64,000 bases of DNA from Acidimicrobiia bacterium. Its GTDB lineage: Bacteria; Actinomycetota; Acidimicrobiia; Spongiisociales; Spongiisociaceae. Within the stretch, counting starts at the first letter, position 1. Each line of letters starts with the position of its first letter. The DNA lies in assembly GCA_963663955.1 (NCBI GenBank), contig OY760694.1, positions 2,503,587 to 2,567,586 of the forward strand, read 5' to 3'. The translations under genes and the position numbers were made by a program. Shown piece after piece: positions 3,954 to 44,961 of this stretch. Below the pieces are notes generated by a model that was given only the letters and a program-made list of their open reading frames with translations, ran no database searches and was not told the DNA's origin.

Positions 3954-6919
3954 TTACTCAGGAACGGGGTCCCACAGCGTCCCAGAGCGAGTAGTTATCA
4001 CGGGAGTGACACGGCTCGCCCGGTCGGGACTGGTCTCTTGGGAACCGGCCAGGCCGGCGCGGACTTCTTCGGCGGCGCGCTGGGCGTTGAGTTCTAGCAG
4101 CCGGGCAAGCACCTCGTCGCGGACGGCGTCGGGCCAGCGGTAGGGCTTCTTCTTCTTGCCCCAGGTCTCCTCGTCGATCTCGTAGTCGAGGAGGAACTCG
4201 CAGTCCGTGGGGATGTCGGTCCAGCCGTAGGCATCCAGTACGGCTTGATCCATGGCGGTGTGCAGACGGCGGAGTTCGGCGATCTCGGGATCATTCTCGT
4301 AGGGATCGTGGAAGCGGTTGTATGTCTTCGTTATCCCCTCATTATTGTGGACCATGAGGGTTGCTCGGAACTCGTAGTACTCTGTGCCGACGTGTTCGAG
4401 ACTGACGCGATTCTCCCAGTTGCCCGGGAACGGAAATGTCTCGAAGCAGTCGGAGGGTGTGTAGCGTAGGTCGTCCTTCATCGAGGATACGCAAAACCGT
4501 GACCATAGTTCATGGGTCCTCGACTGAATCAAGCAAAAGGCTGCGTAGTCTGTAAACGGAAAAACAATCAGTGAATCCGCATACACCATGCCGCTAGATA
4601 AGAAGGCGAATCCCCAATAGTGGCTAACACGGCATATGGTGAGAACTCTTTCTAAGCCTATAAGTCTTTCGTACAGTTCTTTACGAGGACGTTCAAAGTG
4701 CCACCAATGCGCAGTCGAATGGCTCGCACGTTTTCCATGAACACGATCCTCTACGATGGACAATAGTTGCGGCCAGTCGGCTGCAACAGGGCCAGAGTAG
4801 TCGAGAGGGACCTCTCCGTCTCGGATCCAATCTTGCTGCTGGGTTTCTGACGCATCTCTCCATTTTTGACCTAGGCCCATCCGCGCAAGCGGATAGTCTT
4901 GGAAGTTGATTACATAGCGATGGTGTAGCAGAGCCGGACTTCGATTAACTTCTTTGCCTCCGATGTATGGTCCTTCGCCAGGGTGATCAACCAGAGCGAC
5001 AGCTTCGCGAGATCGACCGCCTTGGGATTGCGGTCTACTCCGTAGAGGCAGCGCTGGGCCACCAGCCGCCGGGCGAAGATCGCCTCGTCCTCGTCGGGTG
5101 GGATTTGGGGCATGGCGTCGTGGGCGCGCCAGGATTCGGCGAGTTGGCGGCAGGCCTCAACCAGGAAGGCGGCCGAGCCCATGGCCGGGTCGCACATCTT
5201 GAGGTCGAGAATCTGATCGGGACGGACCGGCCCGCTGGCTTTGGTGGCCAGCCCATCCAGGATGGGTTCCAGGGCTTTGCGGACGATGGGCTCGGTGAGC
5301 TCGCGGGGCGTGTAATGCGAGCCGGACTTTCGGCGTTCCTCGCTCGGTTGCAGCACCATGGCGCCCGCCGCTACCAGGTCTGGAGTGGCGTTGCGATCAA
5401 TAACCGGATCGAGTGCGGCGTGCATCTCGTCGAGCGAACCCGACTCCCGAACAGCCTTACCCACCTTGGCGGTGAGCTTGCGGTCGGTACGGTCCCGCAT
5501 CCACTTGACCCGCTCTGACGGTTCCTGTCCCAGCAGGCCTTCGAGGTTCACCGTGGCGGGAGCGCCGTGCCTCTTGGCGGCCTTGATGGCAACGCTCCGG
5601 CCTGTAGCGGTCTCCAGCCGGAAGCCCATCATGGTCTCGTAGACAGAGCCGATGTGCTCAACGTCGAGGGCTCGGTAGGAGATGCGTTCGGCGTCTAGGA
5701 CGATGAGCTTCTCGAGCACCCGGTCGATCGTGCCGTCCCCGATGCGCGGCGGCTCGATCCTCTCCAATGTCTGCCGTGGGCCGAAATCACGCCCTTCGAG
5801 GAACGGGTAGCGATCGGGGAGAAAAAGATCGCCATACTTGGGCGCCATGGACATCTGCCCGGCGTTTGCGCCGTCGTGGACCATGCGCCAGAGGGCTAGG
5901 AGCTGGGCGTAGGCGCCGTAGCGCTGGTCCATCGTATCTGGGTACAGGGAAGTGTGGGCTCGCAGCCGCTCGTAGAGACCGGACACCGAGTAGGCACCCA
6001 GGAAGGTCTCGTCCTGGGGTAGCAGGTCCCGTTCCTCGGCGTACAGCAGGTAGACGAGGCGCAGCACGACCGTCAGCAGTCCCCGATAGATCTCGTCAGG
6101 GTCCTCCGTAAGCCAGCGCCGGAGCAGCCGACCGTCAGACGCGTCATGAGCTGCCTGGAAGCCCCGCAGCAACTCGTACAGGGCGTGTAGAACCTGCTCG
6201 GCGAGGCGTTCCGAGACCTCGTTCTGGAACTTGCGGCTGTCTTCCAGCAGTGCCGCCAGGCGTTTCTCGCGAGCCACGCTCAGCAGGCGCGTCTCTCCGA
6301 GGAGCTCGCGCATGGCCGAGACGAGCCGGATCGTTTCGCCGTTGAAGAGGAGCCCCGCGGGAACGCCCGTGTTCCTCAGCAGGCGCTCCATCCGGCCATG
6401 AGGCGATAGGTCCAGACCGCCGCCGGTAATAGCGCGGTCCAGGTCCTCGCCGGGTTCGCACACGCTGACCAGGAACTGCCACGGAGAGGGTTCCTCCTCA
6501 AGCTCGTCACCCTCCGGAACGGCAGGCGGCGCCGAAGCCTTGAGCGGTTCGGAGCGAACTGCGAAGTCGGGCCGGAACACGTTGCCGGACTCCGGCAGCG
6601 GAAGCTCTAGGTTGGCCGGAACCGGTACCTCGGCGGTACCGGCGTAGCCCTTCGCGGTGAAACGCCAGCCGAGCACTTTCTGGGCGAACTCCCGGAAGTC
6701 CGGCAGTTCGGTCGTGGTGCCGGCCGGATCGGGAACGCCGTTCTCGACCCACTCGCGGAGTAGCTTCTGGCCTGCGATATCCCGGCGGTTCAGGATCACA
6801 CCCGCTTTTACGAGCGCAGGCGCCGACACCACCAGGCCGGTAGGTCGGACGAACCCGATCCACTCCAGATGGTCGATTACCCGCTGGTCGCGCTTCGCCA
6901 TCAGTTGGTCTCTGGCCAT
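3954..6919 (-). pseudogene. Gamma-class N6-adenine DNA methyltransferase (PglX / type IIG / DISARM DrmMI-like), frameshifted or internally deleted
   Basis: True start MARDQLMAKRD at 6919; the first 292 aa of ORF 4910..7795 are low-complexity overlap with the helicase. Motif X-like SGSHYTPRELTEPIV, motif I DPAMGSAAFL, then GVDRNPKAVDLAKLSLWL. Frame breaks near 4990-5000 before any NPPY-like motif IV. C-terminal domain (HWWHFERP..., FCLIQSRTHELW, DDLRYTPSDCFETFPFP, LHTAMDQAVLDAYGW) continues in a different frame as ORF 3954..4880. Confidence 0.65.
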
Positions 6920-9702
6920 AGGTATACGAGACCCACCGGTTCGACCCGTTTCACATGTACCTCGTAGAACTCGCGCACCCGGGCAGGCTCGTCCACCAGG
7001 TCCTCGTCGAACTGGGCGAGTCTCCTGTGCCAGTGCCGGATGTCGGCGTTGAGCTGCTTCGTTTCCTGGGCATTGAATCCGAAGGAAAGCTGCTTCCGGT
7101 CGCGTTCGTAGTGCTCGAGTTGGGCGACCACTTGGGCGCGGTGCCGCTCCAGGGTCTCTCGCAGCGACCGTTCCTCGCGCCGTCCGCGTTCGGCAAGCCG
7201 TTGCTCGGCTACTGCCGCGAACTCTTCCGCTCGAGGCTCCAACTGGGGACGGAGATCGGCGATGTCCTGGGGTGCGGAGGCGAGCAGTCTCCGGCGGATC
7301 ATCTCGTCCGGTTCTCGGGCGCGGGAGTCCAGGGAGGCGTCGAGGAGCCTCATGGTGCGTTCCTGCGCTTCCCGAGCGTAGGCGCGCAGCGGTCCGGAGC
7401 GCCGTTCCGGTTCGCTCCACCGGGCCGCCACCGGGATGATCTGCTCGTGCAGACGCTCGGCACCCCGGCCATACAGCGACAAGCGCCCGAGCAGGATGAC
7501 ACGCGGGATCGAATCCTTCGTCTGGGCGAGGCACGCTCGAGACAGGTCGTGATAGATGAACCCCTGTGAGCGGAACCGGGCCAGCAGCCGCTGGGCCACC
7601 CGCTGTTCCAGATGCAGGTGCACGGTTTGGTCGTCGAGCCGTCCTGTGTCCTCGAACACGACGGGTCGGAGGGGCGCGTCGCGTCGCCAGTCGGGGATCT
7701 TCTGGTCGATCCGGCGGGGCACGCGCAGTGAGTCGAGGGTGGATGTCCAGCTTGGATCGGTAGCTGCTCGCTGTTCCAGAGCAGGGAAGGTCCACACCCG
7801 GTGGCCGTTGTCACCGGCGCTCTCGGCGAGTTCCGAAGCTCCGAGCAGGCGGAGGGAGCAGTTGATCGCCTGGCGGAAGGGTTCCGCCGAGAACCTGACC
7901 CAATCCCGTGACTTCTCGAGGAGCTTCCGGCATCGCTCGATCTGGTCCTCGAGATCCTCGCGCCGTTCACGGGCCGCCTCTATCTCCTCGGCGGCGGCAA
8001 GGGTGCTTTCGCCCTGGGGAGACTCCGCCTTGATCTCGTATCTCAAGTGTTCCGCGTCGCTATGGCGGATGCCGTGGCGGATCAGGCGTTGCTCCACAGC
8101 GTCCTCGATCACCTTCGGTAGGCCTCCCAGTTCCTTCTTGATGGTCTCGGTCTTCCTGACCAGCACTTCGAGCACCCGGTCCTCGACTCGCTGCGGCAGC
8201 ACGAAGTAATGGCAGGTCACTTCGGTGGCCGGTTGCAGCTTGCGGTCGATGCGGCCGTTGCGCTGCTCGATACGGCCCGGATTCCACGGCAGGTCGAAAT
8301 GGAACATGTCCGAGCACCGCGCCTGCAAGTTGAGTCCCTCACGGGCGGCGTCGGTGGCTATCAGGATCCGCAGGGGCTCGTCGGCTGGGTCGGCATTGAA
8401 GCGGCGTTGTATCTCGCGGCGGCGCGCCGGGCTGGTCAACCCGTCGATCACATCTATCCGCTCATCGGCCTGGTCGGTGCCGAAGATGGCCTGCTCCAGA
8501 GTGGACTTCAGATACCGCTTGGTGCCCTGACGGTTCTCCGTGAAGATCAGGACGCGGCAGTCGGTCCAGGTGGGCGGCGGGCCGGTGATGGGCTTGCCCA
8601 TGGCTGGTAGCTCCGGGCACTGGTTGCGGCGTATCCACTCAATGAGCCATCGGGTCTTGGCGTCGGGTAGGTGCCTGGTCTCCTCGGCGATCTCCTGCAT
8701 GCGCTGGAGGAGACCCTGTTCACGTTCCCATGCCGCTGTCTCAGGGTCCTTGGACGGGAGGGCCGCCAAGTCGATCTCGCGGATGCGGGCCACCTCATCC
8801 GCCTCAACCTCTCAGGAGGCCAGCCAGCGCGCTCATCGTCGGCGTCGGGTGACTTCAGGAAAGCGAAGGCTTGATGGGAGTCGATCCGAGGTTGTGTCTC
8901 GCCGTCTTCGTGGGCTTCTTTCCAGTGGCGCAACACGTCCGGCGATGTACCAAGAGGGTGCGGACGAAAGCTTCGATCGACGACAGCAACTGCTGCCGCA
9001 AACGGATCACCATCAACCCGGCGGCATGTCGAACACGGCTGGATTCTGACCGGTAACGCTCCTCGCGCGCAATCCGATACTCGTCGAGGAGGCGGGATAA
9101 TTCCAGTTCGGGCGCCTCTTCGGGTAAGCCGTCGATCTCGATCCGCCTCACGTTGCGTTTCGGGAACCCACCTTGCACCGCCCGGATGTCCTCCTTCAGG
9201 CGTCGCACCATTACAGGTGCAAGATCGGTCTTGGGACGGGTCACCTTGACACCCCGGGTGAAGCGGTACGGGTCCAGCAGTTCCAACAGTGTGGAAAAGC
9301 TGTTCGAGTGGGCCGTTGTGGGGCGTCGCCGACAGGAACAGCCGATGCTCGAACCGGTGAGCGAGATCACGCACCGCTCGGGTGAACTTGGTCTCGATGC
9401 CGTACCGCCCGCCCGAGGAGGGCGCAGCGTGATGAGCTTCATCGAGGATCAGCAGGCTCCCCGTACGATGGTCACCCAGCCATTCACGCATCGGGTCCGT
9501 GTAGGACGGGTCGATCAGCAGGCGTTGCGAGATCAGGAACCTGCTGTGGGTACGCCAGGGATTCACACCGAAGCCGCGATCCCGGCGCATCCTCGACACG
9601 TAGCGCCTGTCGAGCACCTCGAACACGAGGCCGAACCGGTCCTCCATCTCCCCCTTCCATTGCTCCAGCATCGACGGAGGCGCGGCAACGACTGTGACCT
9701 TT
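6901..9702 (-). pseudogene. SNF2-family helicase (DrmD-like), C-terminal ~930 aa: remainder of ATPase core plus helicase-C and C-terminal region; internal frameshift
   Basis: DEAH box LILDEAHHAAPS and LFLSATPHNG in ORF 8547..9671. Frame switches to ORF 8855..9442 (STLLELLDPYRF), then continues in ORF 6901..8793 (helicase-C: RILIATDAAREGLNLQ..., FHFDLPWNPGRIEQRNGRIDR). The 5' boundary is the IS3 left inverted repeat at 9703. The stop overlaps the methyltransferase start by 19 nt. Confidence 0.7.
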
Positions 9703-9753: not shown

Positions 9754-12147
<2,394 letters not shown>

Positions 12148-12241
12148 CAATACCTGTCCATCCGCTACACAAACCGTTTAACGGAAACCGGGATCCGACC
12201 TTCGGTCGGATCCGTAGGCGACTCATACGACTGTGACGAGA

Positions 12242-13570
12242 ATGGTGTGGTCGTTGGGTCGGGTCTGACTCTTGTTACGACCGGCCGCAGAGTGCCTTTG
12301 CGTTGATCTGTCGGCCCGGCTCGGCGGCTTGTCCACACGCAGCTAGCCGTCCGGGAGGGCAGTGACCCAATAGGGGCCTGGGGTTTGAAACCCGACTCGT
12401 CACAGTCTTGTCCGCCCGCCCGGACGGCCGGTCTGCGTTCCACCACAGGGAGGAAACTATGACCAGTATCGTGTCCGATGCTCCGTTCGGGCAAGGTGAT
12501 TGTCGGGGTCGACACTCACAAGCACATCCATGTCGCGGTGGCAATTCAGCCAGCACGGCACCCGTCTGGGTGACCGCGCGGTGAGCGCTGACAGCGGCGG
12601 CTACGCCCAACCGGGTGGCATGGGTCCAGGAACTCGGCCAGCTTGACCGGTTCGGGATCGAGGGCACCGGCAGCTACGGCGCTGGGCTCACCAGTTACCT
12701 GCGACGCTGCGGGCATCGGGTAGTTGAGGTGAACCGGGGTGATCGCCGCTCGCGGCGCAACAGCGGCAAATCAGACGCTATCGACGCTGAAGCCGCCGCA
12801 CGGTCGGTCCTTGCGGGGACCTCGACCGCGGTTCCCAAGACCACGAATGGGCTGGTGGAGATGATCCGCCAACCCAAAGTAGCCAGAGACACCGCCCGCA
12901 AAGGCCGAACCTCGGCGATCATCACCCTTAAGACGCTGATCGTGAACGCCCCGGCCGAGTTGCGCGAGTCCCTCGATGGGCTCACCAATCGGGTCCTCAT
13001 CAACCGTTGCGCCCGCTTCCGAGTGTCGGCAATGGACAGCCCCACAGCCTCGGCCAAGCACTCGCTGAGAGCGTTAGCACGCCGCCGGCGCCACCTCGAC
13101 ACCGAGGTACGCCACCTACGACGCCGTGCTCGACGACGTCGCTACCCAGGCGTCGCCGACACTACGAGACGCCTACGGCATCGGAGCCGACTCCGCGGCC
13201 GAGGCTCCTCATCGTGTTCGGCGACAACCCAGAACGGATCCGCTCAGAGGCCGCCTTCGCGAAACTCTGCGGCACCTGCCCCATCCCAGCGTCGTCAGGG
13301 CAAACCAGCCGGCACCGCCTCTACCGAGGCGGACACCGACAAGCCAACGCGGCGCTCTACCCACTCGCCATCGTACGAATGCGATTCCACCAACCCACCA
13401 TCAACTACGTCGCTCGCCGCACCACCGAAGGCCTCACCAAAAAAGACATCATCCGCTGCCTCAAACGGTTCCTCGCCCGCGAGGTCTACCAGCGAGTCAT
13501 GACCGACCACCGTGCCCGGCAATGCCCTGCCCCCACCCCCTGAACCACAATATTTGACTATAGGGGCATC
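12242..13570 (+). mobile_element. IS110-family element inserted in IS3 OrfB; transposase heavily frameshifted
   Basis: Inserted exactly between the IS3 OrfB codons ...DSYD and NALAES.... No inverted repeats, as expected for IS110. Confidence 0.7.
12478..13543 (+). pseudogene. IS110-family transposase, at least 4 frameshifts
   Basis: MLRSGKVIVGVDTHKHIHVAVAI, then GTRLGDRAVSADSGGYAQ, then VAWVQELGQLDRFGIEGTGSYGAGLTSYLRRCGHRVVEVN...KSDAIDAEAAAR, then LLIVFGDNPERIRSEAAFAKLCGTCPIPASSGQTSRHRLYRGGHRQANAALYPLAIVRMRFHQPT..., each in a different frame. Confidence 0.7.
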
Positions 13571-13824
13571 AACGCCCTAGCCGAATCCGTAATCGGACTA
13601 TACAAAACAGAACTCATCCACAAACAGGCCCCATGGCGGAACCGTGACCACGTCGAATACGCCACCCTCGAATACGTCGACTGACACAACCCACCGGAGA
13701 CTGCTCAAACCAAACGGGGACAAACCACCAACAGAAACCGAAGCCGACTACTACCGTGACCACACACCAGCCCAGGTAGCTGGACTCAAATAAAAAAACT
13801 CTCCGGCAAACCCGGTACGGTTCA

Positions 13825-14255
13825 ACGGGTGATCAGGCCCGCCTCGATGGTCTTCCCCAAGCCAGTGTCGTCGGCAATCAGCAAGTTGACCCGCGGGAGC
13901 AGCAGCGCCTTACGCAGCGGGTTTCCATCTGATAGGCGTCGATAGTGATCCCTGCCCGGAAAGGCGCCTGGAACAGGGTCGGGTCGGTGGCAGTGGTGCA
14001 GTTCCACCGCAACGTGTTGAGAAAAGCAGCGAATTGGTGCGGCGGGTCCAACCCCTTAGTGGCCAGGCCCTCCCATCCCGCATCCTCGATGATCAGGCGG
14101 TCAGGCTCGTACTCCCAGAACACCTCGAGCGACTGACCCTGGTTGTCGTCGTCCACACAGGCCAGTCGGACCCGGGGCGACTCCGCCGGCTTGTCGGATT
14201 GGGCGACCTCCTCGACGATCCAGCGCCGAGATCGAACCTGGACCAGTTCACCCAC
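13825..14255 (-). pseudogene. SNF2-family helicase N-terminal fragment (motif I), separated from the rest by the IS3 composite insertion
   Basis: ORF 13878..14255 (...GITIDAYQMET) and ORF 13822..14007 (PLRKALLLPRVNLLIADDTGLGKTIEAGLITR = SNF2 motif I) are offset by 1 nt at the GAAACCC run around 13920-13926. The fragment ends exactly at the IS3 right inverted repeat (13824). Confidence 0.6.
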
Positions 14256-14321
14256 GTCGGGCGGACCCGTAGGGAGAAGAACGATGTCAACCTCCTCTCA
14301 CCGCCGGTTCGGAACGCTCGA

Positions 14322-16066
14322 TATCCTAGGAGCCTGCTGTTCTATGGGGGTTGTGGTGTAGCGGGTTGTGTGGGTGGGGGGTGTGTTTTGGTGGTTCGGG
14401 GCGGGGTTTTGGGGTTTGTTCGATGTTGGGGGGCCGGTTTATGCGGTGTGGGCTGGTTATGCGGGGTTGAGGGTCCAGCGGGTGTTTGTGTGGGTGAGTC
14501 CGAGGTTGGTGAGGCGTTGTAGGTTGACGGCTGCTGCTCTGGTGGTGAGCCATTGTTTGTTGCGGGTTAGTCCTCGGTAGGGGACGCGTCTGGCTTTGCC
14601 TCGGGTGAGCCAGGCGATGGTTCGTTCCACGAGCGGCCTCCGGGTGCGGTAGGTGGTTTGGTTTCCGGGTTCCTTGAAGCGTGTCTTGTTGGCTTCCCGC
14701 CGGTCGTGGTGTTCGTCGACTGTGACGGTGCGTCCTGCTTTGGCGGTGGTGCACCGGGCCCTCAGTGGGCAGCCGTTGCATCGTTTCGCAAAGCGGGCGG
14801 TTCCTCCGGGGCGTATGCTGGCGGTGTGTCCGGCGGGGCATGTCACGGTTCGTGCCCCGGTGTCGATAGTGAAATCGTCGCGGTGGTATCCGCCTTCGAT
14901 GCGGGTTTTGCGTACGATCGGTTTCACGATGGGGGTGTGACCTGCTTCTTCGAACGTTTTGAGCGCCGGACCCGACGCGTAAGCGGAGTCGGCGAGTATC
15001 ACGGTTTCGGGGGGTTCTTCGGCTATAAGATCGGCGATGCTGCCGGCGTCTGTGGTGTTAGCCGCGGTGAGATCCGTAGTGGTGACCAACCCGGTTTCGG
15101 GTTCCACCGCGACATGTGCTTTGTAACCGTCCCGCTTGGCGGACCGGGTTTTGTGACCGTGCCGGGCTTCGGGGTCCACCACCGAGATTGTCCGGTCCTT
15201 GGCGACACGGCGGGCTATCCGCCAACGGCCTTCCCGGTCGGGGTCCTGTTCCACGTCCTGGCCGCACACCACTCCCAACAAACCCAGAGCTTCGACCTGG
15301 TCCGAATCCAGTTTCATGTCCTTGACCGTTTCGATCAGCTTCAGGCCGTCTGTGACCAACCCGTTGATCAACTCGGAACGGGACTCCGGATCGGACCAAT
15401 CACAGGACGGTTTCGTCTTCGATTCGTAATCATGCGCTACCAACACCACATCGGCGGCTTCGGGTATCAGACGGCGGCAACGCCGTATCTGGGATGAGAT
15501 CATCGTTACCGTGTCCTGAGTAGCAACCGCGTCATCCAAAATCGTGGAATCCAGAGCCCGACGATCCTTACCCGCCAACACCCCCGACTCTGCAACCACT
15601 TCCCGCACCGCGTCGAAGATACGCTCAGGCTTCTTACTCGCCCGCAGCCTCGCCCGCCACCGGGTCAACACCGTCGGATGAAACCCCTCATCCACCAACG
15701 ACAAACCCGCCGCTGCTTTCCAGGCGATGTCACAACGCAGCCGCTCAACCGCTTCCCGATCCGAAACAGCCTCCAAAGCCTGCAACACCAACACAGTCGC
15801 AATCACAGAACCCGGAACCGACGGGCGACCCCGCCCACTACCAAACAAATCCGCGAACATCCCGTCGGGAAACAAACGGAGGCGATGCTCCGCTAGAAAC
15901 CGGTACACCGAACCCACCGGCACCAACCCCCCACACAACCCCATCGTATCCAACAACTCACGATCAAAACGTTCAACACCCTGCATAACCCCCACAATAA
16001 CACCACCAAACACAAAACGCGAATACCCCCGGGCCCGACCACCCGAATAAAACAGCAGTCTCCTAG
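14322..16066 (-). mobile_element. IS1182-family (IS4/IS5 superfamily) insertion sequence upstream of the helicase gene
   Basis: Terminal inverted repeats CCTAGGAGCCTGCTGTT (14323-14339) and AACAGCAGTCTCCTAG (16049-16064), 1 mismatch. Encloses a 518-aa DDE transposase. Confidence 0.75.
14457..16013 (-). CDS. IS1182-family DDE transposase (intact)
   Basis: ...ILADSAYASGPALKTFEEAGHTPIVKP...RPLVERTIAWLTRGKARRVPYRGLTRNKQWLTTRAAAVNLQRL, the C-terminal signature of IS1182/IS5-like transposases. Confidence 0.8.
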   Translation of the reverse strand: MFGGVIVGVMQGVERFDRELLDTMGLCGGLVPVGSVYRFLAEHRLRLFPDGMFADLFGSGRGRPSVPGSVIATVLVLQALEAVSDREAVERLRCDIAWKAAAGLSLVDEGFHPTVLTRWRARLRASKKPERIFDAVREVVAESGVLAGKDRRALDSTILDDAVATQDTVTMISSQIRRCRRLIPEAADVVLVAHDYESKTKPSCDWSDPESRSELINGLVTDGLKLIETVKDMKLDSDQVEALGLLGVVCGQDVEQDPDREGRWRIARRVAKDRTISVVDPEARHGHKTRSAKRDGYKAHVAVEPETGLVTTTDLTAANTTDAGSIADLIAEEPPETVILADSAYASGPALKTFEEAGHTPIVKPIVRKTRIEGGYHRDDFTIDTGARTVTCPAGHTASIRPGGTARFAKRCNGCPLRARCTTAKAGRTVTVDEHHDRREANKTRFKEPGNQTTYRTRRPLVERTIAWLTRGKARRVPYRGLTRNKQWLTTRAAAVNLQRLTNLGLTHTNTRWTLNPA

Positions 16067-24573: not shown

Positions 24574-26949
24574 ATGCGCTTGCAGAGGTTGAAACCCTTG
24601 CCTACCTGCGAGCCTTCCCGCCCGCGACCCCGGATTCGTCCGGCTGCTCTGTTAACCACCTTGGCGATGTTGCTAACCACCTTCTTCTCCACCCAGGCCG
24701 GCGCCCAATCAGGTAGCAACGACAACCCGAACCAGGATCCGGGATCGGCGCGGGTTACCTGCGAGGAAACCGTCGTCGTGTTCCAACTACTGTGTATCGC
24801 TTACCAGGTCATCAGCGACAACCATATCGATCCGGTCGACGACGCCGACTTGGCCAGGGAAGCGGTGAACCGGATACGGGAGGCGAAGCTGGCCGAGCGA
24901 ACGGAGGGAACACCTACTCCGTGCCCGCTACCGGCGCCCGAATTCGAGGAGGTGTGCCGGGAGATCGATAGGGTCGAAGACACCGCGATGGCCGTCGAGA
25001 TGGCCATGAGAGGAATGGTACGGGCGCTGGACGAGAACTCGTACTTCCTTACCGCGGCCCAGTACGACCGATTCCTGGAAGCCATCGAGAATCGGGGAAT
25101 CACCGGCCTCGGATTGGCCTTTGCTCTGACCGATGACGGCGAAGCCTGCTTCGAGGTTTCGACCTCCTGCGTGCCGGTAATCAGCGAGGTCTACGAGGGA
25201 ACGCCGGCTCATGAAGCCGGGCTGGCGGTCGGTGATGTGCTCGAGAAACTCGGAAACGTCTTCCCCGCCGACCTGAAGTGTTCTGCGGTACCCGGTCTCG
25301 ATAGGTTCCCGGCGGGTACCGGTGTCGCCATCACGGTGAGGCGGGGAACCGAAACCGTTTCAACGACGATCACCGCCGCCGACCTTGCTATACCCGCGGC
25401 GCGGGGGCGCCTCGTGGACGATGAAATCGGGTTGCTGCGTCTCGATTCGTTCGGTAGTTCGGCCGGCCAGGACGTGCGGGAGGTGCTTGAAAGGCTAACC
25501 AATACCGGGGCTAGCGCCCTGGTGTTCGACCTCAGGGGGAATCCGGGTGGTTACGTCGATTCGGCTGTCGGAGTGGCGGGGCTTTTCCTCCCGAACTTGA
25601 CAACGGTCGTGCAATTGGTGAGCAGGGAGCAGGCCGAGTCCATCGGCGCCCGAGGCAAGGAACTCTATCCGGATCCGATACTCCTGCCCATGGTGGTGGT
25701 CACCGACAACCGCAGTGCGTCGGCGTCGGAGTTGGTCACCGGCGCCCTTCACGACCACGGAAGGGTCACCACGGTGGGTGAACGGACCTACGGCAAGAAC
25801 ACGGGTCAGTCCTCCTACCGGCTGCATCTGGAAGGTAGGACGGTTGCCGTGATCCATTTGACCACGATCCGGTGGTTGACTCCCGACTCCCGTAGCGCCG
25901 ATGGCGGATTCGGGCCGGACGTGGCTATGGAACTGCCTTCCTGCCTGCCGCCTGCCGAAGTGGCCAGGAGAGCTGTCTCCGCTATCCGTCCCCGGGTTAC
26001 CGGCGTGGCGATCACCAGCACCCCCCAACATAAGGCAGGCTACGCGGCGGGCGAATCGGTGAAGCTGGCCGTGTCCTTTACATCCCCGGTGGTGGTCGTG
26101 GCTAGTGGAGCAACGCCACAACTCGAGCTCCGGATCGGAGAAAGCAACCGATTTGCTCTCTACCGAGCGGGAAGCGGAACTTCCCGGCTGGTCTTCGAGT
26201 ACCTGGTAACCGAGAACGACAACGACGAGGACGGAATCACCGTTGAGCCCGACTCCCTATTCACCGGAAGAGCGAATATACAGCTCCCGGGCGGACTGGA
26301 CGCCAACCTCTCTCATGCGGCCGCCGCTCCGGACCCCACGCAGCTGGTTACCGGATCGAGCCGGGATAGGCCCGACGACCACCCCGCCTTCGTCGATATC
26401 GCCGCTTCGCCACATCGCACCGGCATCGAGATCATCACCACGGCTGCCATCGCTGAAGGCTGCGGGAATGCGGATAGCAGACGGTTCTGTCCGGACGATC
26501 CGGTGACCCGTGGTCAGATGGCCACCTACCTCGCCAGGCTCCTAGACCTACCCGCCGCCGACCTCGACCACTTCACCGACGACAACGGAACCACCCACGA
26601 AAACAACATAAACAGCCTCGCCGCAACCGGCATCACCCAAGGCTGCGACAACCACCGATACTGCCCCGACCAACCCATCACCCGAGGGCAAACGGCTACC
26701 TACCTCGCCAGGGTCCTAGACCTACCCGCCGCCGACCTCGACCACTTCACCGACGACAACGGAACCACCCACGAAAACAACATAAACAGCCTCGCCGCAA
26801 CCGGCATCACCCAAGGCTGCGACAACCACCGATACTGCCCCGACCAACCCATCACCCGAGGGCAAATGGCTACCTACCTCGCCAGGGTCCTGGACCGTCT
26901 TGCGGCGGCGAACCCGCCGGTTGTGGAGGAAGGCTTCAAAGGCCCTTAG
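24574..26949 (+). CDS. S41-family C-terminal processing peptidase with PDZ domain and three C-terminal SLH (S-layer homology) repeats
   Basis: Signal peptide. S41 motifs LVFDLRGNPGGYVDS and DNRSASASELV. Three repeats FTDDNGTTHENNINSLAATGITQGCDNHRYCPDQPITRGQMATYLARVL (SLH consensus F.D...I..L...GI..G......P...ITR...A..L). Confidence 0.8.
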   Translation: MRLQRLKPLPTCEPSRPRPRIRPAALLTTLAMLLTTFFSTQAGAQSGSNDNPNQDPGSARVTCEETVVVFQLLCIAYQVISDNHIDPVDDADLAREAVNRIREAKLAERTEGTPTPCPLPAPEFEEVCREIDRVEDTAMAVEMAMRGMVRALDENSYFLTAAQYDRFLEAIENRGITGLGLAFALTDDGEACFEVSTSCVPVISEVYEGTPAHEAGLAVGDVLEKLGNVFPADLKCSAVPGLDRFPAGTGVAITVRRGTETVSTTITAADLAIPAARGRLVDDEIGLLRLDSFGSSAGQDVREVLERLTNTGASALVFDLRGNPGGYVDSAVGVAGLFLPNLTTVVQLVSREQAESIGARGKELYPDPILLPMVVVTDNRSASASELVTGALHDHGRVTTVGERTYGKNTGQSSYRLHLEGRTVAVIHLTTIRWLTPDSRSADGGFGPDVAMELPSCLPPAEVARRAVSAIRPRVTGVAITSTPQHKAGYAAGESVKLAVSFTSPVVVVASGATPQLELRIGESNRFALYRAGSGTSRLVFEYLVTENDNDEDGITVEPDSLFTGRANIQLPGGLDANLSHAAAAPDPTQLVTGSSRDRPDDHPAFVDIAASPHRTGIEIITTAAIAEGCGNADSRRFCPDDPVTRGQMATYLARLLDLPAADLDHFTDDNGTTHENNINSLAATGITQGCDNHRYCPDQPITRGQTATYLARVLDLPAADLDHFTDDNGTTHENNINSLAATGITQGCDNHRYCPDQPITRGQMATYLARVLDRLAAANPPVVEEGFKGP
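26527..26880. repeat. Near-identical 174-bp tandem duplication (2 copies) encoding SLH repeats 2 and 3 of the S41 peptidase
   Basis: TACCTCGCCAGGGTCCT... recurs at 26527, 26701 and 26875. Only a few mismatches over 174 bp (e.g. ACGGCT/ATGGCT and CTAGA/CTGGA). Confidence 0.8.
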
Positions 26950-27805
26950 GGTGCCACACGGTCTTGATCTCGGTGAAGGCCGCGATGAGGTAGGGGCTCT
27001 GTACAGCCCGGTCGTCGTGCCAGTCTATGGCGTCCTTCGGCGGGCGCACCACCCGCTTAATTCCCCCTGCAGCAGCCTGTTCCAACTCGACCATCAAGCT
27101 CGACTCGACCCCGCAGGCGTCTAGAGCATTCACGTCGAGGTGTGACGCAAGGTAGGGAACCATTCCGCCTCTCGATCCGGTCAGCACGTTCACCACCCCT
27201 CGCGGAACGTCCGCGGTAGCCATGGCTTCCGAGAAGGTGATGGCCGGCACCGGCCGACCTTCCGAGGCAATTACCACCGCGGTGTTTCCCGAAACCATTA
27301 CCGGCGCCAATCTGGACACCAGACCGAGCAAGGCCGACTCCTCCGGAGCGATTATCCCCACCACGCCGGTGGGCTCCGCTACCGAGATGTTGAAGAACGG
27401 ACCAGAGACCGGGTTCAGATTGCCGACAACTTGCTGGTACTTGTCGGCCCACCCGGCATACCACACCAGGCGGTCGATCGCCTTGCCTACCTCCCGGCGT
27501 GACTTGCCCGCACTCGCTCCGGTAGCGCGGATCCCTTCGACGAACGCCTCCGCTCGGTCTTCAACCATCTCGGCTATCCGGTACAAGATTTGACCTCGGT
27601 TGTATCCGGTACGCGACGCCCATCCGGGCTGGGCCTTCCTAGCGCAGCGGACCGCATGACGCAGGTCCTTGCGGGTTCCGGCCGCCATCCGGGCGATGAT
27701 CTCCCCCCGATAATCGTATGCCGGATAGGAACGACCAGACTCGGAGCGGGGAAAGTCCCCGTCGACGTAGAGTTTGTAGGTCTTCCGTACTCTGAGCCTG
27801 TTCAC
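26936..27805 (-). CDS. Aldehyde dehydrogenase-like protein, truncated/degenerate paralog (lacks catalytic Cys/Glu region)
   Basis: ALDH-like N-terminus KTYKLYVDGDF...SGRSYP and the NAD-binding region are present. Only 289 aa with no ELGGK or catalytic Cys motif. Start overlaps the stop of the upstream ALDH. Confidence 0.55.
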   Translation of the reverse strand: MNRLRVRKTYKLYVDGDFPRSESGRSYPAYDYRGEIIARMAAGTRKDLRHAVRCARKAQPGWASRTGYNRGQILYRIAEMVEDRAEAFVEGIRATGASAGKSRREVGKAIDRLVWYAGWADKYQQVVGNLNPVSGPFFNISVAEPTGVVGIIAPEESALLGLVSRLAPVMVSGNTAVVIASEGRPVPAITFSEAMATADVPRGVVNVLTGSRGGMVPYLASHLDVNALDACGVESSLMVELEQAAAGGIKRVVRPPKDAIDWHDDRAVQSPYLIAAFTEIKTVWHPKGL

Positions 27806-40489: not shown

Positions 40490-43400
40490 ATGAGATTCCG
40501 GCGGCATGCTCTCATCCGGCGGAACAGGGTGGGTTTCCGTAAGCGGGTTTGCTCGCATCGAATACTGACCACGGTCACGCTGTGGCTCGTAATCGCGGCG
40601 GCTACGGTCGCGACGCCCTTGGGGGCCTCGGCCCAGACGTCATCAAGCTCAGACCCTGATATCCCGCAAAGCCCCGACTGCCATCCCAGCCAGACCATAA
40701 GGATCCTATTCCTGCTTGACACCTCGGGGAGCTTGCAATGGAACGATCCGGCGGGTAACCGGATCGAAGGAACCATTCGGGCCGTGTCCGACCTGGTAAC
40801 CCGGGCGATCAACGACGGCCCGGAGCAGCGCCGCAGATACGGCGGATGGTCATTGCAGGTGGCGGTCGACACATTCGCCAACGACTACTACCGATCCGGA
40901 GACTGGCGCCCGCTGGTCGGTACCGATGAGGCTCTGCTCACCGGTACCGACCAAATCAGGGATCTAGCCCGGCAGCTTGAGGACACGATACGAGCGGCGG
41001 AACCGTCCGGCTCCCGGACCGACTACCGCAGAGCCTTGGCCGGCGCCGTCGAACGGTTTCGCGAAGGCGGCGGCGGCTCCTGCAACCTGCTGTTCTGGTT
41101 CACCGACGGGGAACACGACACTCAGGGCCGCGCCAGGCTCAACAGTACCGAGCGCCGCCAGATAGACGACATGTGTCGATCGGACGGGGTGGTAGCGGAC
41201 CTCAGACAGTCCGGAATATGGACCAGTGTGATCGAGTTGACCGAGAACCGCGCCCCAACCGCCGTGCTGCCTCGGCTGGTTGGGACCGGTCAGGAGTGCG
41301 ACGGCCTCAACGGGAGCGTCGTGGGACGTGTCATCCCGGTAGCGTCCGCCTCGCAGCTGGTGGACGACATCGAAAGGATCCTGTACGAGGTCTGGCCTCG
41401 CACACCGATCGAATACCATCCTTGCTCCCCCACGCCGGAGCGTCGGTTCGTTCTCGACGAAGACCTTGAAGAGGTCAGGGTGTTCGTCGACCTTACCAAG
41501 GTCGACGAACCCGACGCTGTGGTGCTAAGCCTTCAACCTCCCGGCGGCCGACCGTTTCCGATCTCGTTTCCCGACACTTGGAGGAGAATCTCGAACACAG
41601 GATTGCTCGGCTGGAAGCCCACCAAGTGGCATCGGGAGATCAGGGCGCATCAGCTTGGCCGGCAGCTGTACGGAACGGTCTGGGGCGCCGATCAGGAGTG
41701 GCGTCTGTTCTGTTCCGGCCCCGGCTACGAACGGGCCGAGATCGCCATAGAGAAACTCGAGATAGAGAAAGCGAGGGTGGTGGAGCTGAACCGGACCGCC
41801 GACAATCTGGTGGGGCAGGTGCAACCACCACCGAAAGAGGGGGAAACGGTCCGCATCTCGGCCCGAATCGGCGGTGTTGGTCCCGGTGCCGGACGTAGCC
41901 TTGATCTCCCCGATGAGGACCTTCGGGTCGAGCGCAACGGCAGGTTCACGATCCCCACCGTCAAGGACCGGGTTGAGGAGGCGCTCGGGGAGACCGGAGA
42001 ATGCCAGGCCGAACTTGAGGTCTCGGTCACCAAGTGGGTGACCTATGGCGAAGAGCGCAGCTTCTGGGACATCCCCGGATCGGAGGCCGTACTCGCCGTG
42101 GACGTCTGTCGGGGCCCTCTGCCGGAAGTCTCGATCGCCCTGATCGATGGACAGCCTTCAGGCCCTCTCGAGGTCACCGCCCGCGGCGGCTATCTCGATT
42201 CCCTCCTTACGATCGCGGGAATCGGCACCGATCCTCCGGTGGAACTCGGTCCATTGGTGTGGCGTTGTGAAGTCCCCGCCAATGTAGACGGTTTCCGCTG
42301 CGACAACCTTGCGGTGGACGTGTCCGACCAGCCCGACATCGGAACGGAAGTGGACTTGGAAGTGACCGTCGAAGCAAGCCCCCAAGGCTTGGACCGGCCA
42401 GAGACCCGGATCCTTCCGGTGGCGGGGCTGCTGGTCAAGGGCAAACTCCCCCACCCCGATCGGGTGATGGTCGGCGGCGCTGGAACCGGTGTGGTCCAGG
42501 TAGGCGCCGACGGTGGCCTGCATGACTCCGAGATGGAGATAACCGCCGTCCGACCTGTGGAAGTAAGCGTGTCGGATGGTCCCTGGCGTTGCTACGTGCC
42601 CGCCAATGAGGTCGAGTATTCCTGCAGTCCAGATGTCGTCCTGACCGCGCCGGGAGCTACGCGGTCGATCAACACCCCCCTGTCGCTCACCATCAGGGCT
42701 CGATCCACGGTCGACGGTTCCGCCGAGTGGGTCAGGGACTTCCCGATCAGCAGCCTCGACATACCGGGTGATCTGCCCCGAGAGTTGACCGTAACTGCTC
42801 TGCCCCGTGACCCGGACGAGCCGATCACGCTGAAGGTAGCGGTCGAACCCGGGGCCCAGGCCGCGGTGGTGTCATCGGAATCGGTCGAACCGGTAGAGGC
42901 CGCCCATCCCGAGAAAGATCCGGTCCGGATCGTCGTATCATCCTGGGAAGGCTGGCGATGTGACATCGAAAGAACCCTTCCGGGTGTCGCCACGAACGTC
43001 ACAGAGTGCGACCAACCGCTCCGCATCGAGTGGGAGGGTTCCCACGACTCGGAGATCGGTCTCAACCTCACCTTCGGGATCCGGGGATCGGCGGACGGGG
43101 AAGTATCTCAGTCGGTCACCGCCACCTCCGGACCGTTCGAGATACGAGTCTGGGAACTCTCGGAGTTCATCGCCGCCCTGATCCGCTACCTGGCCGTGCT
43201 CGTCGTAGCTGTGTTAGCGGTTCGCGTGTTAACGGCTTGGTGGCGTCGGCGATGGGCCCCGGCGTCCTCGGCGCAATACTTCACCCTCCGCGGCGACAGC
43301 GGTACGTCGATCGAGGAGTCGACCGGAAGGTCTCAGATCGAACCGTCAGAGTATGAGATGGCACCCGGCCTCGACTCCAGAGCGTCCTCGGCGAACCTGG

Positions 43401-43825
43401 GCGAGATTCAGCTCCGCATGTTGTGGTGGCCGTTGCTGCTCGGGGGGCGCCGACGGATCGCCGCGTTCTATCCGGACGGCGCCTGCACATCCGGTGCCGG
43501 AAGTAGCAAGCAGCGGCTGGGCGAAGGCAGGTACGGCGTGGTCGGATCCTCTCTACGGGACGGTTGGGCCTTGGGACGGGCATCGGATGACGGATGGACA
43601 TTGGTGGTATGGGATCTCCCTTCCGACCAGGATGAGGCCCAAGCCAGGCTCGACGAGGCGATCAACGAGGCCGCCGCCCGGTGGGACTCCGTTTCTCCCC
43701 GGAAGACACCATCGCCAAGTTCGGCCCAGGATTCCCCCGAAGTTCCCCAACGTGAACCGCCCGGGGAAGAAGGTTCTTCTGACTGGGATTCCGATCTCGA
43801 CGACGATCCCTTCGTAACCAAATGA
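40490..43825 (+). CDS. Exported VWA-domain protein, 1111 aa, single C-terminal-proximal TM anchor and cytoplasmic tail
   Basis: N-terminal signal/TM segment. VWA MIDAS motif IRILFLLDTSGSL ... LLFWFTDGEHD. Three ~115-aa repeats each with W-R-C...C. TM helix FIAALIRYLAVLVVAVLAVRVL. ~200-aa tail ending in an acidic patch. Confidence 0.7.
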   Translation: MRFRRHALIRRNRVGFRKRVCSHRILTTVTLWLVIAAATVATPLGASAQTSSSSDPDIPQSPDCHPSQTIRILFLLDTSGSLQWNDPAGNRIEGTIRAVSDLVTRAINDGPEQRRRYGGWSLQVAVDTFANDYYRSGDWRPLVGTDEALLTGTDQIRDLARQLEDTIRAAEPSGSRTDYRRALAGAVERFREGGGGSCNLLFWFTDGEHDTQGRARLNSTERRQIDDMCRSDGVVADLRQSGIWTSVIELTENRAPTAVLPRLVGTGQECDGLNGSVVGRVIPVASASQLVDDIERILYEVWPRTPIEYHPCSPTPERRFVLDEDLEEVRVFVDLTKVDEPDAVVLSLQPPGGRPFPISFPDTWRRISNTGLLGWKPTKWHREIRAHQLGRQLYGTVWGADQEWRLFCSGPGYERAEIAIEKLEIEKARVVELNRTADNLVGQVQPPPKEGETVRISARIGGVGPGAGRSLDLPDEDLRVERNGRFTIPTVKDRVEEALGETGECQAELEVSVTKWVTYGEERSFWDIPGSEAVLAVDVCRGPLPEVSIALIDGQPSGPLEVTARGGYLDSLLTIAGIGTDPPVELGPLVWRCEVPANVDGFRCDNLAVDVSDQPDIGTEVDLEVTVEASPQGLDRPETRILPVAGLLVKGKLPHPDRVMVGGAGTGVVQVGADGGLHDSEMEITAVRPVEVSVSDGPWRCYVPANEVEYSCSPDVVLTAPGATRSINTPLSLTIRARSTVDGSAEWVRDFPISSLDIPGDLPRELTVTALPRDPDEPITLKVAVEPGAQAAVVSSESVEPVEAAHPEKDPVRIVVSSWEGWRCDIERTLPGVATNVTECDQPLRIEWEGSHDSEIGLNLTFGIRGSADGEVSQSVTATSGPFEIRVWELSEFIAALIRYLAVLVVAVLAVRVLTAWWRRRWAPASSAQYFTLRGDSGTSIEESTGRSQIEPSEYEMAPGLDSRASSANLGEIQLRMLWWPLLLGGRRRIAAFYPDGACTSGAGSSKQRLGEGRYGVVGSSLRDGWALGRASDDGWTLVVWDLPSDQDEAQARLDEAINEAAARWDSVSPRKTPSPSSAQDSPEVPQREPPGEEGSSDWDSDLDDDPFVTK

Positions 43826-43854
43826 GATGAAACCATCGACTAGGAGATGAACAA

Positions 43855-44961
43855 ATGCTGAGACCCGTCATCATGATCGGTTGCGGAGGATCCGGTTCCA
43901 AAGCGGTTCGCTATGTCCGCGACGCGGTGGAGCGCAAGCTGCGTCACGCCGGGGTCAAGGGCGGCATTCCCGATGCGTGGTCATTCATAGGGCTCGACAC
44001 CCTCACCGTGCAGGAGGACGCGACGGAAATACCGACCCTTCCGGCGACGGACTTCCTGTCGGTGTCGCTCGGCCTCAACAAGTACAGCGATGTTCACGAC
44101 GGACTGATGGTCGAACGCCCGGTTACTTCCTCCACCTATCCGAGCCTGGTGGGTTGGCGCCCCAACCCTGGTGACGTGAACGTGCCGCTGCTCGACGGGG
44201 CCGGAAAGTTCCGGGCAGTGGGGCGGTTGGTCGGGCTGCTGGCGTCGACGAACGAACTTCAAAAACGGATAGGCCGCGCCTTCATGGCCGCCAAGTCGGG
44301 GGGGCCGGAACTGGGTCGTATCTCCGAAGCCTTGGGTGTCCCCTCAAGCTTGGGCTCGGCGACGCCCTCCCCGCTCGTGGTGATCTGTGCTTCGGTGGCG
44401 GGGGGCACCGGCGCCGGGATCGCCCTTGATGTGGTGGATATGGTCCGTAGAGTCGACGATCTCGGGGGATTCCCGGTCCTGGTGCTGTTCACCGCCGACA
44501 TCTTCGACTTCGGCGTCGACGACGCCATGGCGGCCAATTCGCTCGGCCTGGTTTCGGAGACCATGGCCTCCTATTGGGGCAAGCAAGGCGACAACTTCTT
44601 TCCGTCGTTGGTTCCCGAGCCGGGGTCCGGCCCGCACGCCCTGTTTTTCGTCGGCCGACACAGCCTCAAAGGTGGCGATCTGGGCGACACCGTGTCGGTG
44701 TATCGGGCGGTGGGCGAAGCGATGTCCACCTGGGTCACCGAGCCGAGGGTGCAGGAACAGATCCACAACTTCATCACCGTCAACTGGGCGAGTCAGGCCA
44801 AGAATCGGATGGGGGGATATCCCTTCGGAGTGGAATATCAACCGGGTGCGGTGTCCTCATTCGGCGCGGCCACCGTCTCGATGGGGCGTGACCGCTTCGA
44901 GCGCTGGGCCACCGATCTGCTGTCCCCACGAGACCCTCCGACGACTCGCCGGCGGGCATAA
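43855..44961 (+). CDS. Divergent FtsZ/tubulin-superfamily GTPase domain protein (FtsZl-1-like); probably the N-terminal part of a larger protein
   Basis: T1 loop VIMIGCGGSGSKAV (cf. FtsZ IKVIGVGGGGGNAV). T4 signature LVVICASVAGGTGAGIALDVVDMV (cf. FtsZ ITAGMGGGTGTGAAPVIAE). The frame ends 3' of a C4 run at 44924-44927, where the next ORF continues. Confidence 0.65.
   Translation: MLRPVIMIGCGGSGSKAVRYVRDAVERKLRHAGVKGGIPDAWSFIGLDTLTVQEDATEIPTLPATDFLSVSLGLNKYSDVHDGLMVERPVTSSTYPSLVGWRPNPGDVNVPLLDGAGKFRAVGRLVGLLASTNELQKRIGRAFMAAKSGGPELGRISEALGVPSSLGSATPSPLVVICASVAGGTGAGIALDVVDMVRRVDDLGGFPVLVLFTADIFDFGVDDAMAANSLGLVSETMASYWGKQGDNFFPSLVPEPGSGPHALFFVGRHSLKGGDLGDTVSVYRAVGEAMSTWVTEPRVQEQIHNFITVNWASQAKNRMGGYPFGVEYQPGAVSSFGAATVSMGRDRFERWATDLLSPRDPPTTRRRA

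Follow-up and report, generated by a model that had tools for sequence, protein, structure and literature searches.

The Gene and Its Surroundings

The window analyzed here is a 64,000-nt stretch of contig OY760694.1 (GCA_963663955.1, positions 2,503,587–2,567,586; all coordinates below are window positions), and it carries a complete gene for an S41 peptidase that ends in three S-layer homology (SLH) repeats (Table 1). Our subject is the near-identity of the second and third of these repeats, which we followed through orthologous loci from a genome scan and the European Nucleotide Archive (L001–L022) and through database protein homologs (P0001 and onward). The genome scan yielded 12 orthologous loci, every one from metagenome-assembled genomes (MAGs) labeled Acidimicrobiia, Ca. 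Spongiisociaceae, or Ca. Spongiisocius; the host of the protease is a sponge-associated actinobacterium. The nearest relative, L001, lies on a 4.08-Mb chromosome (OZ246890) and shares 94.4% DNA identity with the window over the gene, and a protein identical to the window product (P0001) is on record from a 4.14-Mb contig. A direct look-up of the exact protein returned no entry, and relatives supplied the genomic context. The N terminus (MRLQR...) is kept in orthologs. Gene order is kept as well at the orthologous loci, running from a lactonase through one or more HhH-GPD glycosylases to the S41-SLH gene, two aldehyde dehydrogenase genes, and DeoC. The existing public annotation for this architecture is “S41 family peptidase.”

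Pfam scoring bears out the proposal, made earlier from the letters and open reading frames (ORFs) alone, that an S41 peptidase is followed by three C-terminal SLH repeats: both families exceed their cutoffs (PF03572, 131.4 bits against 24, E = 3.1e-38, aa 285–451; PF00395, 50 bits against 20.8, in three stretches).

At its 3′ end the gene overlaps by 14 nt with a convergent 289-aa ORF of the aldehyde dehydrogenase family (26936–27805, minus strand). This short ORF adjoins a full-length one of 495 aa, and its 289-aa length is kept where the ortholog is called complete.

Table 1. Features of the S41-SLH gene and of its repeat DNA, in window coordinates.
Feature	Coordinates	Strand	Basis or remark
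Complete gene, secreted S41 C-terminal-processing-type peptidase with C-terminal SLH triplet, 791 aa	24574..26949	+	ORF, Pfam, conserved N terminus
Probable Sec signal peptide, aa 1–44	24574..24705	+	Suggested by hydropathy and sequence
Putative divergent PDZ domain, aa 179–266	25108..25371	+	Sub-cutoff Pfam matches, Ctp alignment, ortholog PDZ
Peptidase S41 catalytic domain, aa 285–451	25426..25926	+	PF03572
All-beta Ig-like spacer, aa 474–570	25993..26283	+	AlphaFold2 model, no family assignment
SLH repeat 1 and linker	26389..26568	+	Family profile match, alignment
SLH repeat 2 and linker, chimera	26569..26742	+	Head and core as repeat 3, tail and linker as repeat 1
SLH repeat 3, then unique C-terminal tail	26743..26910	+	Profile match, alignment
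Homogenized tract, 373 nt, period 174, 2.14 units, perfect 153-nt repeat inside	26524..26896	+	
Junction in repeat-2 tail	26713..26718	+	Alignments

Repeats 2 and 3 Are Nearly Identical at the DNA Level

Tandem Repeats Finder reported a period of 174 nt at 26506–26896 (2.2 copies, 96% matches, score 733). The two units that the sequence-only reading had described as almost base-identical, 26527–26700 and 26701–26874, do differ at only two of 174 positions (26539, C/G; 26693, C/T) and share a perfect run of 153 nt (26540–26692 and 26714–26866). Near-identity reaches slightly beyond one period, with 3 mismatches in 199 nt between 26524–26722 and 26698–26896, and upstream of this stretch the identity between repeats 1 and 2 falls to ∼78%. 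The DNA identity of repeats 2 and 3 is far beyond chance. Repeat 1 has a divergent head and core (∼68% DNA identity to repeat 2), while in tail and linker the two repeats are nearly the same. The junction within the chimeric repeat 2 is marked by two diagnostic positions: 26713 has the G of repeat 3 (C in repeat 1), and 26718 has the A of repeat 1 (G in repeat 3).

The 64-kb window holds no further copy of the 174-nt unit and no other match to the SLH profile; thus, there is no inter-gene donor within 64 kb. A diversity-generating retroelement was considered and rejected: the mismatches (C/G, C/T, and A/G) are not confined to template adenines, both copies are coding and lie in tandem, and there is no reverse transcriptase nearby, the neighbors being the lactonase, glycosylase, and aldehyde dehydrogenase genes.

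The Two Copies Predate the Split From the Nearest Relative

The sequence-only reading interpreted the two units as a very recent 174-bp tandem duplication, that is, a single event in this genome or its immediate ancestor that turned a two-SLH gene into a three-SLH gene. The agreement of 172 of 174 bases between the units is what such an event would leave behind, the chimera junction in repeat 2 looks as if produced by an unequal crossover between two tails, and orthologs with two repeats are known, L002 among them (75% identity). A comparison of all six repeats in one alignment, three from the window and three from L001, points the other way. L001 has the same three-repeat structure, and two differences between repeats 2 and 3 are common to both genomes: ACG (Thr707, 26693) in repeat 2 versus ATG (26867) in repeat 3, and CTA (26718) in repeat 2 versus CTG (26892) in repeat 3. 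Because these differences are shared, the distinct copies must predate the split of the two lineages, which now stand at 5.6% DNA divergence. Beyond L001, every long-contig ortholog from Ca. Spongiisociaceae/Acidimicrobiia sponge-associated MAGs also has three repeats, the two-repeat forms being found on short contigs, and since the same near-identity occurs in at least nine more lineages that diverged deeply, an equal number of recent duplications would have to have arisen independently. A single recent duplication is therefore highly improbable.

The same alignment revealed four sets of sites at which copies within one genome have changed in parallel relative to the other genome. One G-to-A change affects the tails of all three repeats (26533/26707/26881). 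The other three sets involve two copies each: G to A at 26557/26731 and two synonymous changes, A to C at 26550/26724 and T to C at 26697/26871. The simplest explanation is that conversion took place after the window and L001 had separated.

An error of assembly in this genome, by spurious duplication or mis-joined reads, would also generate near-identical units. Assemblers classically run into trouble at tandem repeats such as this one, with its perfect core of 153 nt, and related short-read assemblies do have gaps here. Such an error is nonetheless barely credible, given that independent assemblies numbering at least 11 share this structure; several are chromosomes or contigs of Mb scale, among them the 4.14-Mb contig with the identical protein and the independent chromosome-level L001 with the same arrangement. 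In addition, the reading frame is intact, and the three-repeat product is modeled as a canonical SLH trimer.

Near-Identity of Repeats 2 and 3 Extends Across the Ortholog Group

To place the window in a wider context, we used a DNA-level set of 15 loci with three complete repeats and counted site patterns over all 55 pairs among the 11 of them that have a long exact match between repeats 2 and 3; loci with indels between repeats (L012, L017, L018, L020, and L021) were compared by alignment instead of fixed-offset identity. Repeats 2 and 3 of one protein are typically 80%–96% identical in the ortholog group (mean within proteins, 84%), and repeats 1 and 2 are 55%–72% identical. Between proteins, the mean identity of repeat 2 to repeat 2 (65%) is about that of repeat 2 to repeat 3 (62%), indicating that position carries no signal. 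In 11 of the 15 loci, repeats 2 and 3 share an exact DNA match of 79–161 nt that is each genome's own, with host proteins that are only 51%–66% identical, and the homogenized tracts span 168–226 nt with only 1–4 mismatches.

The site patterns give the cleanest view of this regime. Over the 55 pairs, repeats 2 and 3 agree within a genome and differ between genomes at 2393 sites (25–74 such genome-specific sites per pair), versus 114 sites that group by position, many of which lie in the non-homologous ends of the repeats. In a control clade formed by L012, L018, L020, and L021, the ratio of genome-grouping to position-grouping sites is reversed. A neighbor-joining tree likewise paired repeat 2 with repeat 3 by genome or by close genome pair, and repeat 1 followed species relationships. 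When nearest neighbors were sought for entire repeat envelopes, the signal suffered from the ends of repeats 2 and 3, which are not homologous, and from genome pairs that are very close; the site-pattern count is the cleaner measure.

The control clade is sister to the window's clade and differs from it in layout as well, with a repeat 3 that resembles repeat 1 and not repeat 2. In L012 and L021, a core-and-tail stretch of ∼100 nt is identical in all three repeats, the heads being only 30%–50% identical; the homogenized segment is the C-terminal half of all three repeats, and the shared core and tail tract differs between the two loci. L018 and L020 show no homogenization, and the repeats of L017 form a mosaic.

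Could old repeats have been kept alike by purifying selection on the protein, without recombination? The SLH motifs GITQG and TRGQ and the paired cysteines are strongly conserved, as this would require. However, identity in each genome runs over more than 100 nt with synonymous sites included, the repeats differ freely between genomes (the 25–74 genome-specific sites per pair), and, of the four parallel changes seen between the window and L001, two leave the amino acid unchanged. Identity at synonymous positions together with free divergence between genomes means that selection at the protein level cannot explain the near-identity, and we give this explanation almost no weight.

Taken together, the near-identity of repeats 2 and 3 most probably reflects long-running concerted evolution, with gene conversion within the gene, unequal exchange, or both at work, rather than one recent duplication or an artifact; we put the probability of this reading at roughly 80%. 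Ongoing concerted evolution had been offered by the sequence-only reading as its second option, and the 2393 versus 114 sites and the exact tracts in 11 of 15 loci now speak for it. That reading would have been overturned by orthologs with three divergent repeats and a near-identity that is artifactual; instead, most orthologs have near-identical repeats too, in independent assemblies. The three-repeat architecture itself is old and common to Ca. Spongiisociaceae and related Acidimicrobiia.

That tandem repeats within one gene evolve in concert is a general phenomenon among bacterial surface proteins, and the family-wide homogenization of SLH repeats 2 and 3 at fixed copy number is an instance of it, not a new one. 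As in those surface proteins, repeats are more alike within a genome than between orthologs, synonymous sites included, tracts are mosaic, and copy number is error-prone. The present case differs in that the repeats number only three and the fold of their domain needs all three, that copy number apparently stayed fixed during homogenization, and that the regime spans a whole bacterial family. A literature search on SLH repeats with concerted evolution or gene conversion found no description, and searches on Spongiisocius and on SLH proteins of Acidimicrobiia from sponges turned up no relevant paper. The pattern is a modest curiosity, its appeal being that it offers a clean family-wide example of concerted evolution inside one domain with a three-repeat fold, in which sequence is homogenized at fixed copy number and a different part of the repeat is converted in the sister clade.

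The homogenized units also stand out in base composition. The GC skew of the SLH units at 26569–26916 is −0.41, which puts them among the 0.8% of 174-nt windows whose absolute skew is most extreme. Clades differ in sign, with values of +0.27 to +0.35 in L005, L006, L007, and L022, and the non-homogenized L018 and L020 have a skew near 0. Mutational or conversion bias may account for the skew and may also drive amino-acid differences between clades.

Two-Repeat Orthologs and Probable Assembly Collapse

Three repeats are present in 25 of the 37 close orthologs, and none of the 37 has four. Ten complete two-repeat proteins were found, all on contigs of ≤30 kb (median 12 kb), compared to a median of 173 kb for the contigs of three-repeat forms (Mann-Whitney p = 6e-5; Fisher p = 4e-5 at a 50-kb threshold). 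Among the genome loci, two repeats are recorded for L002 (CAZEZF010000069), L003 (JAPOQZ010000021), L009 (JAPYNS010000210), and L011 (JAJEIM010000031). Two two-repeat orthologs could be set against three-repeat counterparts, and each lacks exactly one unit of 180 bp (L009 versus L006; L011 versus L007). L011 lies on a 135-kb contig named k141_228285, a name pattern that we take to be that of MEGAHIT at k = 141. The exact tracts measure 143 nt in L007 and 153 nt in the window; tracts of this length match or exceed the k-mers that assemblers typically use. Runs of N lie inside the repeats of two short-read loci, L008 and L010.

The position of the two-repeat forms on short contigs and the absence of exactly one unit suggest assembly collapse, and we infer that most of them are collapsed assemblies. 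The sequence-only reading had expected the region to be a site of length variation or assembly collapse; it is the collapse part that gains support, circumstantially, from the short contigs, the single missing unit, and the N-gaps. The locus thus appears to be a trap for short-read metagenome assembly, in which two-SLH or N-gapped orthologs are probably mis-assembled three-repeat genes, and counts of SLH repeats taken from MAGs call for caution.

Recombination as the Proposed Route

We propose that recombination between the tandem copies would repeatedly overwrite one copy with the other, by gene conversion that is possibly supplemented by unequal sister-chromatid exchange, and that copies sharing more than ∼100 identical bases would probably stay locked in this homogenizing regime. 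The layout of repeat 2, with the head of repeat 3 and the tail of repeat 1, recurs in clades related to that of the window. Either conversion on both flanks of repeat 2 or, in an allele with two repeats, an unequal crossover between the tails would account for this chimera. For the sister clade, the partial tracts of L012 and L021 directly support conversion at unchanged copy number. We therefore lean toward gene conversion as the principal route, to which unequal exchange may have contributed, and more tentatively so for the window's own clade.

An alternative retains recombination and lets copy number cycle: recombination between the identical tracts would reduce three repeats to two, unequal exchange between the tails of repeats 1 and 3 would restore three, and the two-repeat alleles would be real and circulating. 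The length of the tract in the window's clade (0.93–1.26 periods) and the chimeric repeat 2 in every lineage of that clade agree with such whole-unit events, as do the exact 180-bp differences within the L009/L006 and L011/L007 pairs and the fact that the ten complete two-repeat proteins are in frame. On the other hand, the two-repeat proteins among the listed homologs occur only on contigs of ≤30 kb, and the N-gaps of L008 and L010 are as expected from short reads that fail to resolve the repeats. Re-duplication after the split would have erased the positional differences common to the window and L001, the partial tracts over all three repeats in L012 and L021 could not be made by whole-unit events, and a four-repeat form is absent among the orthologs. 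On balance we consider copy-number cycling unlikely, though it is far from negligible.

Several observations weigh against long-running conversion as we describe it. In the window's clade the identical tract is always about one period or slightly more, and repeat 2 always combines the head of repeat 3 with the tail of repeat 1; a single unequal crossover in a two-repeat allele would yield exactly this layout, which lends cycles of deletion and re-duplication some standing as the main route, if a doubtful one. Two-repeat orthologs do exist, the second-closest relative L002 included, and their origin by collapse is deduced from circumstance. The evidence for conversion after the split from L001 consists of four site sets only, every one of them in a tail or linker. 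Between the window and L001, the head-and-core segments of repeats 2 and 3 (26569–26700 and 26743–26874; 132 nt) show zero differences, compared to 6 differences over the same span of repeat 1 and a gene-wide divergence of 5.6%; with all four copies the same, these segments say nothing about conversion after the split.

A bolder proposal is that the identical tracts act as a recombination switch, making the gene a contingency locus that passes from three SLH units to two and back, with the two-repeat genes of MAGs as real alleles. We find this quite improbable; if true, a sponge-symbiont population would toggle its protease between firmly wall-bound and weakly bound or released forms.

Predicted Fold and Anchoring of the SLH Triplet

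To relate the repeats to known SLH domains, we used an AlphaFold2 model of aa 461–791 built on the ortholog alignment (mean predicted local distance difference test [pLDDT] score, 77). The model shows an all-beta domain, a disordered linker, and six helices in the SLH part (pLDDT 81–93), and it predicts a canonical three-pronged SLH spindle with a three-helix core. A Foldseek search matched the predicted SLH part to Sap (3PYW; E = 3.9e-9, target TM 0.83, 178 columns) and also to SpaA complexes with pyruvylated ligand, with target TM values of 0.74–0.83 over the entire SLH domains of Sap and SpaA.

Ligand binding by SLH domains involves the Arg of the TRAE motif (SLH-Arg43, which contacts pyruvate), the second Gly of the GIIxG motif (SLH-Gly29), and a conserved Trp (SLH-Trp13) (PMC6081394). 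In the window protein, a TRGQ motif occurs in all three repeats (R646, R704, and R762), and its Arg is invariant or nearly so among orthologs. The GIIxG-type motif reads AIAEG in repeat 1 and GITQG in repeats 2 and 3, which align to GAVKG/GVIKG of Sap. SLH-Trp13 has no counterpart in the phmmer alignment to Sap, where the Trp column holds a Thr followed by an invariant His (H614). Each repeat has two conserved cysteines (GC...CP).

The protein thus resembles Sap of B. anthracis (3PYW/6BT4) and SpaA of P. alvei (6CWC) in its three tandem repeats of ∼58 aa, in a superposable predicted fold, and in having the TRAE-type Arg and the second Gly of GIIxG in all three repeats. It differs from them in carrying a protease instead of an S-layer lattice protein as cargo, in the C-terminal location of the SLH domain, in the paired cysteines of each repeat (absent from Sap and SpaA), and in the missing Trp13. 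Furthermore, the repeats of Sap and SpaA are divergent and functionally unequal, whereas repeats 2 and 3 are nearly identical here. By analogy, it is a reasonable inference that the SLH triplet docks non-covalently onto a pyruvylated secondary cell-wall polymer. A scan of the 30 larger ORFs of the window, with the rest of the genome lying outside that scan, found no pyruvyltransferase/csaB or wall-polymer gene. Two of the three wall-polymer grooves would be built from identical sequence, which could inform how many grooves need to function.

The Protease Part

The N-terminal segment has an Arg-rich n-region, a hydrophobic core at aa 24–38, and then AGA|QS, and from its sequence it probably acts as a Sec signal peptide. 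The putative PDZ region is divergent: PDZ_6 (23.9 bits) and PDZ_2 (19.2 bits) both fall under the Pfam cutoff of 27. Orthologs bear PF17820/PF13180, and the alignment to solved carboxyl-terminal proteases (Ctp) runs across the PDZ region of the window protein. This alignment covers aa 131–459 (9JR1, 7RPQ, and 4C2C; best E = 4e-29). S383, K408, and Q412 are invariant among 26 orthologs, and they align with the SASASE and GK motifs of the solved proteases; we presume Ser383 and Lys408 to be catalytic on the basis of CtpB numbering. The S41 peptidase assignment is sound. At the subfamily level the protein does not reach TIGR00225 “prc” (168 bits against a cutoff of 218.6), and in NCBIfam it lies near the C-terminal processing peptidases, yet under every curated cutoff.

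Between protease and SLH triplet, aa 474–570 form beta strands in the AlphaFold2 model (pLDDT 75–89). Pfam gave zero matches at E up to 10 for the middle region (aa 461–609), and a fold search with the middle domain gave weak matches, to Ig-like domains only; hence, we call this domain an Ig-like spacer and nothing further.

Compared to S41 Ctp proteases (CtpA, CtpB, and Prc/Tsp), the window protein has the same catalytic domain with Ser/Lys(/Gln) and a putative PDZ domain inserted before it. Unlike them, it has a Cys-rich N-terminal region, the extra Ig-like domain, and the C-terminal SLH triplet, and it scores below the “prc” cutoff. We picture an S41 serine peptidase that is exported, uses Ser383 and Lys408 as its dyad, and has a putative, divergent PDZ domain; the spacer would keep the enzyme apart from the SLH domain. 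The protein belongs to two well-known families, the S41 peptidases and the SLH-anchored surface proteins; it is otherwise ordinary, and its expected biochemical role is unaffected by the repeat pattern.

Distribution of the Fusion Among Relatives

The fusion of S41 to SLH had been judged uncommon from the sequence alone. It is in fact the norm among relatives: ∼85 of the best 120 homologs have both S41 and SLH, in at least two subfamilies, and 62 of them have three repeats by a repeat profile built from the family. Members of the close ortholog group are ∼780 aa long, have the middle domain, and share >50% identity; those of a more distant S41-SLH group are ∼650 aa long, with three repeats that are mutually only 30%–50% identical.

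The same Cys-containing SLH subtype is found on other cargo in Acidimicrobiia (1180 matches at E up to 1e-8), including CAP, Excalibur, M23, transglycosylase, and cupredoxin. These proteins share the subtype with the S41-SLH group at 40%–66% identity, and 116 of the 120 listed have three repeats. They differ in that an adjacent pair is ≥85% identical in only 6 of the 120 listed (median 64%). Thus, persistent homogenization belongs to the S41 ortholog group and not to the whole subtype, where it is sporadic.

Variants of the architecture were also seen. In L015 a second S41 paralog with a cadherin domain lies directly downstream (5518–8361 of that locus), P0040 has a cadherin domain in place of SLH, and P0020 is without the middle Ig-like domain.

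Other Features of the Window

Elsewhere in the window, ORFs on the minus strand at 3954–9671 match an MmeI target-recognition domain, an N6 DNA methylase, and a helicase C-terminal domain, and their frames partly overlap (4910–7795 and 6901–8793); the region looks like a restriction-modification or defense cluster, possibly frameshifted. It is followed by a region rich in insertion sequences (10076–16013), with an rve integrase with HTH_21, an ORF with HTH_38 (IS30-like), and a DDE transposase at 14457–16013. The most extreme GC-skew spots of the window are at ∼14340 (+0.72) and ∼15900 (−0.64). On the plus strand at 40490–49662, very large ORFs of 1111, 887, and 889 aa without a Pfam match surround a tubulin-like gene at 43855–44961 (Tubulin_2, PF13809, E = 4.8e-31), forming an uncharacterized tubulin-like gene cluster.

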